A DNA stretch of 36,219 nt from a virus (taxonomy: Duplodnaviria; Heunggongvirae; Uroviricota; Caudoviricetes), in IMG/VR virus record IMGVR_UViG_2571042636_000009, one strand, 5' to 3'. Positions 5,976-10,116 of the stretch are shown here, piece after piece. Numbering within the stretch: position 1 is the stretch's first letter; every line of letters starts with the position of its first letter. The translations under genes were made by a program, and so were the position numbers. Under the pieces are notes generated by a model. That model was not told the DNA's origin and did no database searches. It saw only the letters and a program-made list of their open reading frames with translations.

Positions 5976-6614
5976 TTAAATATTTTGTTGAATTTTAAAG
6001 CATACGCCCAATATGCAAGATAGATCATCCAGCATAATTGAAGGGTAGCGAGGATTCGTGGGGACTAAAAGAATATCCGGCCCTTCTATCTCCAGTTTAC
6101 GAATGACAGGTGTTGTGGTCCCTTTGGGTAAGGCAAGGACAATATTTCCTGGTTGTACGGTTCGATCGGGATCAACAAAAACTGTTGAACCATTTGGGAT
6201 GGAAACTCCCCCACCAGATGTTGACATACTGTCACTCTCTAGAACAACTGCAAAGGTATTGGCCGGGATTTCTCCGACAAGCTGCACACAAGAGGTTATT
6301 GAGGAATTTTTCATATAATCACTCCAGCTTGCTGCCTGCTGAAGTGATAGTAGCGGAACCGTTTTTATCGGCGGTAAAGATAGATCAAGCGAATCACCTG
6401 TATTTAACTCTCCTCCATTAAGAAGCCAATTTTCGTTTACTTTCAATATTTTTGCCAGTGAACTTATGTAACGCGAGGACGGCGCTCCTCCACCGTTCAT
6501 CCATTGACTTACGGAGCCTTTTGATGCGCCAGTGGCATTGACAAGGTCTTTGCCTTTCAGGTTTAGCGCATGCATACGTTGGGTTATGCGTTCAGATATT
6601 GTTTGCTTGTTCAT
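5976..6614 (-). CDS. CI-like phage repressor, full length: N-terminal HTH plus C-terminal S24 (LexA-like) autopeptidase domain
   Basis: 212-aa ORF with an HTH-like N-terminus (GASKGSVSQWMNG), a Ser nucleophile context (ESDSMS) and a downstream Lys (VIRKLE) typical of S24 peptidases; divergent from the Cro-like gene. Confidence 0.85.
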   Translation of the reverse strand: MNKQTISERITQRMHALNLKGKDLVNATGASKGSVSQWMNGGGAPSSRYISSLAKILKVNENWLLNGGELNTGDSLDLSLPPIKTVPLLSLQQAASWSDYMKNSSITSCVQLVGEIPANTFAVVLESDSMSTSGGGVSIPNGSTVFVDPDRTVQPGNIVLALPKGTTTPVIRKLEIEGPDILLVPTNPRYPSIMLDDLSCILGVCFKIQQNI

Positions 6615-6676
6615 GTTTTGATTTTAAAACACAGATGGTTTTGTTTCTTGACTTTCTTTGGTTTTGATTATTAAAC
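6615..6676. promoter_or_regulatory. Immunity-region operator cluster: three GTTTTG(A/T)TT sites spaced 23 bp apart in the divergent repressor/cro promoter region
   Basis: GTTTTGATTTTAAAAC at 6615-6630, GTTTTGTTT at 6638-6646 and GTTTTGATTATTAAAC at 6661-6676. The outer two are partial palindromes; 23-bp centre-to-centre spacing resembles lambda OR1-OR3. Confidence 0.5.
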
Positions 6677-6705
6677 TTTTGGCGTTCAGTTTTATGGAGC
6701 GACTC

Positions 6706-6948
6706 ATGAAAAAATCAGAAGTATTAGGCTATTTTGGCGGAGTTGTTAAAACAGCCGCAGCTCTAGGAACGTCAAAAACCACAGTCAGCATGTGGGGGGA
6801 AGAGGTTCCGTGGAAATGGGCGTTGCTAATTCAGGCAGTCACTGCCGGGGCGCTCAAATATGAGTTACACATACCGACGGTTGTCATTCCCGGTTCTGAT
6901 CATAATCCGCCTTCTAACCAAGGGGGGATTCATGAAAATCAAGCATGA
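6706..6948 (+). CDS. Cro-like / YdaS-family small DNA-binding protein
   Basis: 80-aa ORF divergent from the repressor, with GGAG 7 nt upstream of the ATG and an HTH-like segment (KTAAALGTSKTTVSMW). Confidence 0.7.
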   Translation: MKKSEVLGYFGGVVKTAAALGTSKTTVSMWGEEVPWKWALLIQAVTAGALKYELHIPTVVIPGSDHNPPSNQGGIHENQA

Positions 6949-7357
6949 ACACATCCGCATGGCGATGAATGCCTGGGCGCGTCCTGATGGCGAAAAAGTT
7001 CCGGCAGCTGGAATAACCCAGGCTTATTTTGAGTTGGGTATGACGTTTCCTGAACTGTACGACGACAGCCATCCGGAAGCCCTGGCTCGCAATACCCAGA
7101 AAATTTTCCGCTGGATAGAGAAAGACACCCCTGATGCAGTTGAAAAAATTCAGGCGTTGTTACCAGCGATCGAAAAGGCAATGCCACCTTTGCTGGTGGC
7201 CAGAATGCGCAGCCACAGTTCAGCTTATTTTCGGGAGCTGGTGGAGACGCGGGAGCGACTGGTGAGAGACGCTGATGATTTTGTCGCAGTGGCAATCGCC
7301 GGTTTCAATCAGATGAACCGTGGTGGCCCGGCAGGAAATGCTGTGGCAGTACATTGA
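6932..7357 (+). CDS. YdaT-like (CII-position) regulatory protein
   Basis: 141-aa ORF starting MKIKHEHI, with a strong RBS (AAGGGGGG); recalled similarity to Rac YdaT; sits in the position of lambda cII. Confidence 0.6.
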   Translation: MKIKHEHIRMAMNAWARPDGEKVPAAGITQAYFELGMTFPELYDDSHPEALARNTQKIFRWIEKDTPDAVEKIQALLPAIEKAMPPLLVARMRSHSSAYFRELVETRERLVRDADDFVAVAIAGFNQMNRGGPAGNAVAVH

Positions 7358-7428
7358 CTGACAATAGCCATATCGAATCGCTTCCGGCAACTCGTGAGTA
7401 AAAAGATTCGGTATCAGAAGAGGTGAGT

Positions 7429-8499
7429 ATGGCTAACGCCTGGCTCAGATTATGGCATGACATGCCAAATGACCCTAAGTGGCGAACAATTGCCAGGGTG
7501 TCAGGGCAGCCAATTGCAACAGTGATGGCAGTGTATATCCACCTCCTGGTGAGCGCGTCACGAAATGTCACGCGAGGTCACATTGATGTCACGACAGAAG
7601 ATTTGGCAAGTGCGCTCGACGTGACAGAAGAGGTAATTGATTCAATTTTGCAGACGATGCAGGGGCGGGTACTTGATGGTGATTTAATCACTGGATGGGA
7701 AAAACGCCAGGTGCTTAAAGAGGACAACGGCAATATTTCGCAAACCGCAAAATCTCCTGCAGAGCGCAAGAGGGCGCAGCGAGAGAGGGAAAGAAAGCGG
7801 GAACAAAATGGCGATTGTCACGGCGCGTCACGAAATGTCACGCACATGTCACGACGAGTCACGACAGATAAAGATACAGATAAAGATACAGATCAAGAAG
7901 ATCAAAACACTATGGTCCATGGCGTAAAAAACGCCACGAACCAGGCAGGGGATGTTCAGACCGTCAATCTTGGTCAGCCAGCAGGCACGACACCGGAAGC
8001 CGATTCAGCGTATGCGCTGAAAGCCGATTCGGGCGCTGTGCAGCAGGTGATGACCGCAAGGCCGGAGCAATCACACCAACTGCAGCAGCCCGAAGCCGAT
8101 TCCGCCATTCAGCGGGAAGCCGATCGGGTAGTCCCGGAAAACACCGGGCAGTCTGTGGGACGAGTGGATTATCCGGATGTGTTCGAACAGGTCTGGCGGG
8201 AGTACCCGTTGCGTGCTGGGGCAAACCCGAAGAAATCCGCTTTCAGTGCCTGGAAGGCCAGATTACGCGAGGGGGTGCCACCAGAGGCCATGCTGGATGG
8301 CGTGAGGCGTTACGCAAGATACTTGGCGGCTACCGGGAAAACGGGAACGGAATTTGTTCAGCGAGCGACGACGTTTTTTGGACCGGACCGGAATTTTGAG
8401 AACCCCTGGTTGCTCCCGGTAAGCGGCACGAACAACCAGCGTTGTGTGAATCATATTTCTGAACCGGATAACGAAATTCCGCCGGGCTTCAGGGGGTAA
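7429..8499 (+). CDS. Phage replication initiator / replisome organiser (O-like)
   Basis: 356-aa ORF after the cro/cII-like genes; N-terminal domain, charged low-complexity linker (ERKRAQRERERKRE, TDKDTDKDTD) and C-terminal domain. Contains iteron-like GTCACG repeats with about 10.5-bp phasing in the linker region, as in lambdoid ori inside O. Confidence 0.7.
   Translation: MANAWLRLWHDMPNDPKWRTIARVSGQPIATVMAVYIHLLVSASRNVTRGHIDVTTEDLASALDVTEEVIDSILQTMQGRVLDGDLITGWEKRQVLKEDNGNISQTAKSPAERKRAQRERERKREQNGDCHGASRNVTHMSRRVTTDKDTDKDTDQEDQNTMVHGVKNATNQAGDVQTVNLGQPAGTTPEADSAYALKADSGAVQQVMTARPEQSHQLQQPEADSAIQREADRVVPENTGQSVGRVDYPDVFEQVWREYPLRAGANPKKSAFSAWKARLREGVPPEAMLDGVRRYARYLAATGKTGTEFVQRATTFFGPDRNFENPWLLPVSGTNNQRCVNHISEPDNEIPPGFRG
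7553..7573. repeat. 21-bp direct repeat GCGCGTCACGAAATGTCACGC, copy 1 (iteron-like)
   Basis: Exact 21-bp match to 7824-7844; embedded in a run of GTCACG motifs at 7556, 7567, 7577 and 7588. Confidence 0.7.
7816..7900. repeat. Candidate replication origin: five GTCACG iterons with 10-11 bp spacing followed by AGATAAAGATAC tandem repeats
   Basis: GTCACG at 7817, 7827, 7838, 7849 and 7859, then a tandem 12-mer AGATAAAGATAC x2.5 (A-rich); inside the interdomain linker of the initiator gene. Confidence 0.55.
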
Positions 8500-8539
8500 G
8501 TGTTAATTTCTGGTCATGAGGTAATTTTCAGGAGGGCTT

Positions 8540-8962
8540 GTGGCAAAAGTTTTTACACAAGAAGAGCGGGAAAAAATTAAAGGACAGGTTGTTGAACTCG
8601 TACGCCAGAGTGGGCGTGAGACGTTACGGCAACTGGAAGTCAAGACAGGTGCGACAAGATATCTGATGAGCGTTCTCGCAAGAGAGCTGGTTGCCAGCGG
8701 CGATGTATGCAACTCTGGTTACGGGTTATTCCCGTCTGAACAGGCGCGTAAGGACTGGCAAAATGCCCGTAAAAAGCTCTCAAGGGCAAAGCTGAAGAAA
8801 CCATCTGCGGTTGATCCGGACCTTATCTGGTCATTACCTGACGGAGAAATACGTCGCTACGACAGGCGTCAGAACATAATCTGTCGCGAGTGCCGGAAGA
8901 GTGAAGTTATGCAGCGCATATTGTCGTTTTATCAGGGTGATGTTCGGTATTTATTGAAGTGA
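8540..8962 (+). CDS. Hypothetical protein (140 aa) in the helicase-loader position
   Basis: Clean ORF with backbone-like GC content directly after the initiator gene; no family recognised (basic, CRECRK motif). Confidence 0.5.
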   Translation: MAKVFTQEEREKIKGQVVELVRQSGRETLRQLEVKTGATRYLMSVLARELVASGDVCNSGYGLFPSEQARKDWQNARKKLSRAKLKKPSAVDPDLIWSLPDGEIRRYDRRQNIICRECRKSEVMQRILSFYQGDVRYLLK

Positions 8963-9093
8963 CGAGATTAAAGTGCATTAGTTCAGATGCAAATTGACAT
9001 TTTGTGGCACAGGGTAGAGCTAGCGTGGTTGTCCGCTTTGTGCCAATAGCGGACATTGCTGGCTCATGGTATGTTAGTTTAAGGAGGCAGGTT

Positions 9094-10116
9094 ATGCCCT
9101 GTATTTCGCTGTGGTATAATAGTTGCGCAATTGATACAAGGGAGCGTTACATCGTGAAAATTGTTTTCGAGGTTAATGGAAAGAAAGTTCCACTAAAATC
9201 TTTAAAATACATAAGCAAAAAAGATCAACTCGAAGTAATGAAAAACTGGTTCTTTGAAAACTTTGAAGATCCGGCAAATGCTTGTCCGTATGAAAGTAGA
9301 GAAGGTGGCTATGCTTACATATATGGCGGGCCGTATGATGCGAGCGAAGAACTACAATCCATCTTCGGTCAATATGTTAAATCTGAGTATATTGAGGAAT
9401 TAGTAGATGAATTACAAACACAATGTTTTGACTGGTCTGGAAACTCAAATAATATAGATGATTGGTACGATGATGATATCTACGACGCTGTAACGTCTTC
9501 CGGTAATCCGTATTTAAAATTCATTGATAATATCGATAAAATAAAAAAACTTGCAAAAGATAAAACTGAACAACAGCAAAAAAACCACTTGCTTAGTTTG
9601 CTCTACACGAATGTTATTACAGCTTTGGAAACGCTTTATGTTGAGCTATTCATTAATTCTATAGAGAAAGATGATGTCTACATAGCCAATTGTATAGAAA
9701 AAGGTAAGACTGAATTTAAAGTAAGCAAAGATATTGCTGCGTTGCCTTTCAAGGGTGAACCCATCGAGAAAATTAGGGGAGAGCTAATCAGGTCAATCAA
9801 GGAACACTTGATCAGTGCAAGCTGGCATAGCACTAAAAAGGTAATCGACCGCTATGAAGCTACATTCGATATAAAAGTACAAAAAGACTGTCCGATAGAA
9901 GCTATTGAATTGGCAACCCTCAATCGAAATCACTTAGTGCATCGTGGTGGAAAGGATAAAGAAGGGAACCTCGTAGTGATTACAGACCAGGATCTTGAAA
10001 CGCTGATTGAAAATGCATCGAACCTGGCAATTATGCTCTACAACAGTTTAAATGTAGCAACGAATAAAACCACCATTTTGCAACCAGATGACAAACCGTT
10101 CATTCATGAATTTTAA
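9094..10116 (+). CDS. Candidate defense/toxin-module protein A with a C-terminal HEPN-like Rx4H motif (predicted RNase-type domain)
   Basis: 340-aa ORF (AAGGAGG 6 nt before the ATG at 9094; alternative GTG start at 9154 giving 320 aa). Strongly AT-rich compared with the flanks. Motif RNHLVH near the C-terminus matches the HEPN Rx4-6H signature. No named family recognised. Confidence 0.6.
   Translation: MPCISLWYNSCAIDTRERYIVKIVFEVNGKKVPLKSLKYISKKDQLEVMKNWFFENFEDPANACPYESREGGYAYIYGGPYDASEELQSIFGQYVKSEYIEELVDELQTQCFDWSGNSNNIDDWYDDDIYDAVTSSGNPYLKFIDNIDKIKKLAKDKTEQQQKNHLLSLLYTNVITALETLYVELFINSIEKDDVYIANCIEKGKTEFKVSKDIAALPFKGEPIEKIRGELIRSIKEHLISASWHSTKKVIDRYEATFDIKVQKDCPIEAIELATLNRNHLVHRGGKDKEGNLVVITDQDLETLIENASNLAIMLYNSLNVATNKTTILQPDDKPFIHEF
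9112..9120 (+). promoter_or_regulatory. Candidate extended -10 promoter element (TGgTATAAT) at the 5-prime edge of the AT-rich insert
   Basis: TGGTATAAT is a perfect extended -10; its position would fit the GTG start at 9154. It conflicts with the ATG start at 9094, so either the element or the longer start is wrong. Confidence 0.35.

Follow-up and report, generated by a model that had tools for sequence, protein, structure and literature searches.

Iterons located inside initiator genes are textbook knowledge, with phage lambda and the oriL origin of phage SPP1 as examples (PMC5737612). In the lambda O gene, the iterons are found at gene nucleotides (nt) 349-433, and next to them come a purine-rich A/T tract and, after it, a palindrome (PMC7466680). 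In SPP1, oriL lies in gene 38, which codes for G38P, and there the AB boxes bound by this organizer adjoin an A/T-rich unwinding element, 356 bp being sufficient in vitro (PMC5737612). In this work, we analyzed the gene for a replication initiator in the virus record IMGVR_UViG_2571042636_000009, whose whole stretch of 36,219 nucleotides (hereafter, the window) is a lambdoid Escherichia coli prophage. Positions 7553-7943 of the window are very probably the vegetative replication origin of this prophage, placed inside its own initiator gene. The best reading of the sequence is that of a lambda-style origin for a non-lambda initiator, in which the main iteron array is joined by an unwinding element and a palindrome, and in which a conserved auxiliary array is added around 260 bp upstream.

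This candidate origin shares with SPP1 oriL its location inside a replisome-organizer gene and the presence of the repeats at a similar gene position, but the repeat sequences differ, and no homology between G38P and the N-terminal domain (N-domain) of the initiator was detectable (hhalign probability of 0.1%). In addition, the second G38P-binding region of SPP1, oriR, is elsewhere in the SPP1 genome and not in the same gene (PMC5737612, PMC3485210). When compared with ori-lambda, the origin of lambda and of the lambdoid Stx phages, the candidate origin is likewise in the middle of the initiator gene, within its linker-coding part, and iterons, A/T tract and palindrome follow each other at the same relative position. 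By contrast, the ori-lambda iterons are four 18-bp palindromes around 20-23 bp apart, whereas here they are 6-bp direct cores separated by one helical turn, and the second array found upstream has no counterpart in lambda, even at 5 mismatches. Lambda O is a PF04492 protein and the initiator studied here is not, and the P-type loader gene that lies directly downstream in lambda-type modules is missing. An earlier note on this DNA, made from the sequence alone, had proposed such a likeness to the lambda origin, although with another iteron sequence and with the cluster present twice, and this proposal was in line with every computational test run.

Bipartite origins built on iterons or boxes are also known, such as P4 ori/crr, RK2 oriV with its 5+3 iterons, P1 incC/incA, and the oriC sites flanking dnaA in Bacillus and Helicobacter. 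They have two separate clusters of sites for a single initiator, one of them beside the unwinding element and the other, either intergenic or flanking the initiator gene, exerting an enhancer or copy-control effect from a distance through looping or pairing. Unlike in these systems, coding sequence contains both of the clusters described here, with the upstream one sharing its bases with the code for the putative DNA-binding domain.

Results

Two phased iteron arrays and a tract of low predicted duplex stability

As shown in Table 1, the initiator gene contains two arrays of short direct repeats. GTCACG is found on the plus strand at 7557, 7567 and 7588 (cluster 1) and at 7817, 7827, 7837, 7848 and 7858 (cluster 2), the latter with core spacings of 10, 10, 11 and 10 bp. 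Since the gap in the first array is filled by a degenerate core, GTCACA, at 7577, the spacings of cluster 1 are 10, 10 and 11 bp. There are, in total, nine GTCAC(G/A) cores 10-11 bp apart, in agreement with the recurrence at about 10.5-bp intervals in two clusters that had been noticed before, and both clusters (5 + 4 cores) consist of at least three direct, regularly spaced copies of a short motif, which is what defines iterons. Tandem Repeats Finder detected cluster 2 as five copies of period 10 at 7816-7866, with the consensus TGTCACGACA. The eight plus-strand copies of GTCACG within 321 nt contrast with 0.054 expected (Poisson P of 1.6e-15), and another 12 copies are scattered over both strands of the rest of the 36-kb window. 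Many homologs that use GTCACG also have the lone inverted core listed in Table 1, likewise at gene nt 192.

Both clusters share an exact 21-mer that occurs twice only, as no third match was found at up to 3 mismatches and none appeared in 100 shuffles. Its two copies are 270 bp (90 codons) apart from start to start, and not 271 bp as the earlier note had it.

Directly after cluster 2, Tandem Repeats Finder located 2.9 copies of period 12 (7864-7898, consensus ACAGATAAAGAT, encoding residues 146-157 of the linker), confirming the A/T-rich tandem repeats that had been described at this place. The complete tract is 71% A+T, with 74% purines on the coding strand, and no other 40-mer in 7000-9000 has a lower computed duplex stability, the tract being among the 2.3% least stable of the window, so that an A/T-rich, easily melted element, as expected in iteron origins, adjoins the main array. 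The equivalent tract is A+T-richer than its own gene in 66 of 69 homolog loci. Past this tract there is an inverted repeat which, as single-stranded DNA, has a dG of -8.7 kcal/mol (z of -3.2). Hairpins following the tract are modestly enriched in homologs (24 out of 67 loci beat 90% of the controls), and the inverted repeat is a probable, though unproven, part of the origin. Small G/C-rich inverted repeats, of the types CCCCC(N3-6)GGGGG and GTCRTCTGGCGAYGAC, were also seen 40-55 nt past the last iteron in unrelated lineages, again with modest enrichment.

Table 1. Features of the initiator gene and its surroundings (window positions, or amino acids (aa) of the initiator protein).
Feature	Position	Strand	Details
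Cluster 1, upstream (auxiliary) iteron array	7557-7593	+	4 cores; encodes aa 42-56
Cluster 2, main iteron array	7817-7863	+	5 GTCACG cores; encodes aa 130-145, start of the linker
Lone inverted GTCACG core	7620-7625	-	32 bp past the last core of cluster 1
21-mer GCGCGTCACGAAATGTCACGC, first copy	7553-7573	+	Holds two cores
21-mer GCGCGTCACGAAATGTCACGC, second copy	7823-7843	+	Same codon frame as the first copy
Candidate DNA unwinding element	7864-7905	+	Three 12-bp repeats ACAGATAAAGAT, then CAAGAAGATCAA
Inverted repeat TGGTCCATGGCGT-AAAAA-ACGCCACGAACCA	7913-7943	.	Just past the A/T-rich tract
Initiator gene, 356 aa	7429-8499	+	ATG at 7429; open reading frame (ORF) open also from GTG 7423; from the ORF list
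N-terminal winged-helix-like domain	aa 1-95		Confident, helices + hairpin (AlphaFold)
Basic helix	aa 110-127		AlphaFold
Disordered linker	aa 128-244		AlphaFold
DnaT-like C-terminal domain	aa 245-333		Confident (AlphaFold)
CI-like repressor gene	5976-6614	-	
Cro/DicC-like gene	6658-6948		
CII/YdaT-like gene	6860-7357		
Ren-like DUF977 gene	8540-8962		Next gene after the initiator gene
ORFs of 370 aa and 333 aa	9004-11133		After ren

Several other signals were tried as candidates and rejected. A likeness to the oriC 13-mer was uninformative, with one 2-mismatch match (7882-7894, minus strand) among 28 in the window; the GATC sites at 7891 and 7900 represent no enrichment; internal promoter matches were at chance level, the '-35-like' one being the complement of an iteron; and the internal terminator predicted is the inverted repeat itself.

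The two-array layout is conserved in homologous initiator genes

A survey of 80 homologous loci was carried out on contigs from one genome per species, with the genes located by hidden Markov models, yielding 70 unique genes. A scan of viral contigs with the N-domain retrieved only E. coli copies around 100% identical, the diversity coming from the genome contigs. A phased linker array of at least three copies, with an A/T- and purine-rich tract after it, was found in 55 of the 70 genes. A phased upstream array of the same hexamer, at gene nt 40-300, was present in 38 of these 55 genes, 27 of them with at least three copies, whereas a control zone of equal size (nt 500-760) had a hexamer array in none of the 55. 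The duplicated cluster of the earlier note is, then, also a property of homologous initiator genes from many genera. The distance between the two arrays, from center to center, ranged from 196 to 318 bp, with a median of 262. In the alignment of the homologs, most lineages have the upstream array at nt ~123-190, while Xanthomonadales have it at nt 65-107 and a single metagenome-assembled genome (L133) at nt 194-224. Its direction is opposite to that of the main array in two loci (L140 and L142).

The arrays, and above all cluster 1, could instead be regulatory operators, in which case the true unwinding site might lie elsewhere. In variants of this explanation, the initiator would block or throttle transcription from pR, as autoregulation, or would bring the arrays together in pairs and thereby restrict initiation, in the manner of the additional iteron clusters of P1, F and RK2. 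Both arrays are indeed transcribed, being part of the body of the initiator gene, 17 of the 55 homologs dispense with the upstream one, and array orientation can flip (L140, L142 and L169), something typical of looping or control sites. Nevertheless, the purine-skewed tract of lowest local stability always follows immediately on the main array, which is exactly at the place that ori-lambda occupies in O, and we consider operators an unlikely explanation. Moreover, as far as cluster 2 is concerned they do not conflict with the origin model, and the two explanations compete only for cluster 1, where sequence data alone fit a regulatory role (autoregulation or copy control) and an enhancer role alike.

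The hexamers fall into six classes, each of them found in both arrays (GTCACG, GTAACG, GAACGC/CGAACG, TAACGC, GCAACG and GTGACG), and these classes track N-domain lineages, in such a way that the repeats covary with the cognate initiator, as expected for iterons. Three loci from Erwinia, Pantoea and Enterobacter are particularly informative. The close relatives L106 and L111 have cores at the same six positions (nt 160, 181, 224, 412, 422 and 451), all of them GTCACG in L111 and GTAACG in L106, and L109 has GTAACG at five of them. In these three loci one extra core, at nt 224-229, lies in the code for the N-domain helix 67-77, and therefore the switch from GTCACG to GTAACG at this point changes a His into an Asn (ERHV versus ERNV in L106; SNV in L109). 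Two other loci, from E. albertii (L088) and from E. coli NCTC86 (L168), have cluster 1 grown to six cores at gene nt 129-186, and the extra cores correspond to a 7-aa insertion (TCHGVSL) in an N-domain loop. The gain of iterons has here been paid for by an insertion in the protein.

Other phages carry the same design. In Aeromonas phage pAEv1818 and Pseudomonas phage P7869, with N-domains ~70% identical and with C-terminal domains (C-domains) and neighbors that differ, the two GTCACG arrays and the AGATAAAGA tract are again present, and in more distant relatives a different hexamer occupies both positions, namely GAACGC in a Manatee Spring phage and GCAACG in Ralstonia phage Hennie. The only constant partner of the GTCACG arrays in the E. 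coli, Aeromonas and Pseudomonas phages is the N-domain, while the C-domains and the next gene (Ren-like, DnaC-like, primase-helicase or P) differ among them. These data bear on whether the hexamers are sites for another protein, either a host factor or a phage regulator of the Cro, CII or Ren type. The resemblance of the core complement GTGACA to a -35 hexamer speaks for such sites. However, promoter-like matches are at chance level (3 versus 1.9 expected), GTCACG arrays are found in phages of Escherichia, Aeromonas, Pseudomonas, Bordetella and Acidovorax in which repressor, cro and neighbors differ, and the hexamer changes with the lineage of the N-domain, making another protein very improbable as the cognate factor.

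The repeats behave as DNA signals

The nine cores are spread over all three codon frames, and among Val-Thr dipeptides 91 of 133 are coded by GTCACG (first 470 nt of 30 related genes). Conservation at third-codon positions was compared in 23 genes of different genera with a mean nucleotide identity of 70%, and reached 98% in the cluster-1 cores against 55% at 85 other positions (Mann-Whitney p of 1.3e-5); four of the eight cluster-1 third positions are fixed by the choice of genes, and the other four gave values of 0.91, 0.96, 1.0 and 1.0. For the inverted core, the same comparison gave 0.74 and 0.91. A scan of 6500-9100 against Rfam at E up to 1 returned one chance-level match, located outside the region. 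Frame usage, synonymous conservation and the existence of inverted arrays rule out an explanation based on peptide or RNA, and the finding of the upstream array at different places, sometimes inverted, leads to the same conclusion and points to repeated selection. Overall, these data indicate that the repeats act at the DNA level and not as peptide.

The repeats might still be by-products, either of a repeated peptide motif (SRNVT) or of slippage or gene conversion, which would have carried linker sequence as debris into the N-domain code. In fact, both 21-mers are read in one and the same frame, as ASRNVT, and the number of 12-bp repeats varies between E. coli strains, showing that slippage occurs. 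By-products, however, are hardly expected to use all three frames, to keep synonymous positions nearly invariant across genera, to exist as inverted arrays, to become fixed at three different protein positions upstream, and to be absent from the control zone. From the sequences, this explanation appears already largely refuted, and we give it almost no credit.

The initiator protein is an analogue of lambda O

The initiator protein matches PHROG 3729, 'replication initiation protein', over its full length (E of 5e-258), and its protein cluster at NCBI, with 5786 members, is labeled 'phage replisome organizer'. PF04492 (Phage_rep_O) gave no match to this protein, compared with 5.7e-36 for lambda O. 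The 'O-like' protein of the earlier note is, by these profiles, an analogue of lambda O and not a homolog. In the AlphaFold model, obtained from a 30-sequence alignment, cluster 2 and the 12-bp repeats belong to the linker-coding part, as had been claimed for all the repeats, but cluster 1 falls in the folded N-domain, where its residues form the end of helix 29-45 and the following loop, the least confident part of this domain.

The C-domain profile matches solved structures of DnaT C-domains (6aep, E of 1.1e-7; 2ru8, 1.3e-5; 9zbt, 5e-5), and NCBIfam DnaT matches the last 24 aa of the initiator (E of 7e-4). PF17948 was found on sister variants of the protein. The C-domain, encoded at 8149-8499, thus resembles the single-stranded DNA-binding C-terminal domain of DnaT. 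For the N-domain, the top Foldseek matches were MarR, GntR and Rrf2 winged helices, and we call its fold just 'winged-helix-like' because these matches are weak.

Prophage context and spread of the module

The gene following the initiator in the window is the Ren-like one, with no P-like loader or helicase gene after the initiator gene, whereas in some homologs this place is taken by P, a DnaC-like gene, a primase-helicase or DnaB. The combination of a DnaT-like C-domain with the lack of a loader gene suggests an 'initiator-only' module that would borrow the loading machinery of the host. Further downstream, the 370-aa ORF has a weak match to a HEPN/RES N-terminal domain and the 333-aa one a weak GNAT match, both being in the slot usually occupied by accessory or defence genes in lambdoid phages.

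The E. coli type strain ATCC 11775 carries the initiator gene with 100% identity, and the module was matched in 2699 of 5426 complete E. coli genomes, 1647 of them at a coverage of at least 80%. The isolated temperate phages Evi, Tritos and vB_EcoS-689R5 carry it with 98-99.5% identity, so it is present in viable phages. E. coli genomes share either the upstream part of the gene alone (query nt 1-464) or the downstream part alone (from nt 482/599), revealing a recombination junction around 7886-7904, at the end of the A/T tract, in E. coli gene mosaics. Directly after the DKDTD repeats, protein variants continue with one of at least three different C-terminal modules, and the copy number of the 6/12-bp repeats differs among strains. 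As the mosaics break at the end of the tract, the N-domain and the repeats travel as one module, a further likeness to lambda, where N-domain and origin form one recombination module and the C-domain another. In two rare E. coli protein variants represented by single sequences (P0010 and P0019), the linker array and the repeat tract are missing completely or for the most part, and these variants are presumably origin-defective prophage copies.

Similar layouts in other initiators

The ydaU gene of the Rac prophage of E. coli K-12 occupies the same operon slot, after ydaS- and ydaT-like genes. Its region (L173, 3000-3160) contains TGTTCAAAC-type repeats, two direct and one inverted, then GATACAGATAAAGATCT, which is near-identical to the tract at 7864-7890 of the window, and then a CCCCCCC...GGGGG palindrome. 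The differences are that its N-domain is DUF1376, that the iteron is another one, and that the upstream array is rudimentary at best. We take this region to be the probable position of oriJ. OriJ is reportedly an active origin of Rac (PMC3945230).

The initiator of an E. coli O157:H7 prophage, of the Shigella Stx phage 75/02 and of related viral contigs (L167, 981-2072; L169, 894-1982; L174-L253) has an N-domain that looks unrelated. Even so, it shows a two-array layout with GAAGGGGCTT repeats in all 55 unique related viral contigs seen, the (G)AAGGGGCTT repeats being located at nt ~186-208 (N-domain code) and ~440-470 (linker), followed by a GATCAGGAACAGG purine tract. In phage 75/02 the linker array is inverted. 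Since this initiator has the same two-array layout, the feature may be general.

Discussion

On the observed repeats, their phasing, the constraint at the DNA level, the covariation in both arrays and the low duplex stability of the tract, a mechanism can be proposed in which the winged-helix-like N-domain of the initiator would recognize the 6-bp core GTCACG. With one core per helical turn, the bound subunits would all sit at the same side of the helix and would assemble on the main array in a cooperative manner, and the resulting oligomer would destabilize the adjoining A/T- and purine-rich tract. The DnaT-like C-domain could then bind the exposed single strand, recruit the host DnaB-DnaC, or both. 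The upstream array and the inverted core at 7620 would be a second, functionally required binding region ~260 bp away, which would most likely loop onto the main array, stabilizing or tuning the initiation complex. The binding protein, the looping, the melting and the helicase recruitment are what we infer from the sequence; for the first of them, binding is assigned to the N-domain because it is the sole element linked to the hexamer across hosts and because the hexamer changes with it. The looping between arrays and the recruitment of the helicase through the DnaT-like domain are proposed as hypotheses.

Several points weigh against a replication origin with these properties. Origin activity and binding by the initiator are both features that we infer from sequence patterns. 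The N-domain scored 15-16 bits with PF09681 (Phage_rep_org_N), below the cut-off of 23.3, although aligned over 1-119 of its 121 positions, and the initiator scored 15.4 bits with TIGR01714, for a cut-off of 49.8; Foldseek found no match of the N-domain in the PDB at E of 0.001 or lower. Because the profile scores are sub-threshold and no fold match is significant, the DNA-binding role of this domain is based on analogy and covariation. The profiles for replisome-organizer N-domains match just one of seven diverse family members. The covariation is in turn confounded with phylogeny, except for L106/L109 versus L111. As regards cluster 1, the 17 genes out of 55 that have a linker array but no upstream one imply that the latter is not universally required, the distance between arrays follows no helical phasing across homologs, and the looping role is a guess. 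Finally, neither DnaA boxes nor IHF sites were found in 7300-8600, and their counts in the window are at chance level, but we regard this as neutral because ori-lambda is also without them.

Beyond this prophage, it is possible, although somewhat doubtful, that there is a widespread class of phage origins with two co-evolving arrays in the initiator gene, the upstream one, in the code for the DNA-binding domain, having emerged separately at three or more positions within a single domain family and occurring, too, in the unrelated-looking O157/Stx-phage initiator. Searches of the PMC/bioRxiv literature for GTCACG or replisome-organizer iterons, DUF1376, ydaU and oriJ retrieved no description of the origin analyzed here. 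Likewise, no description of the family-wide two-array design, of the covariation or of the repeated placement in the N-domain code was found in this literature, although reviews of phage replication modules may hold one. If such a class is true, the contact between arrays over ~200-320 bp would be a selected part of origin firing or of its control, and each change in origin specificity would also rewrite amino acids of the binding domain through the overlapping code.

The module is common in E. coli, yet its origin has no description that we found in the PMC/bioRxiv literature. If the origin and its specificity code were known, they would account for replication incompatibility and for the swapping of modules between these prophages, and annotating origins in many Proteobacterial phages would become easier. 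The natural specificity switches, such as that from GTCACG to GTAACG, offer material to study the co-evolution of initiator and sites when the sites overlap the code for the initiator. The DnaT-like C-domain in a module without a loader gene points to helicase recruitment through the restart machinery of the host, and the conserved second array suggests that many non-lambda 'lambdoid' origins are bipartite.

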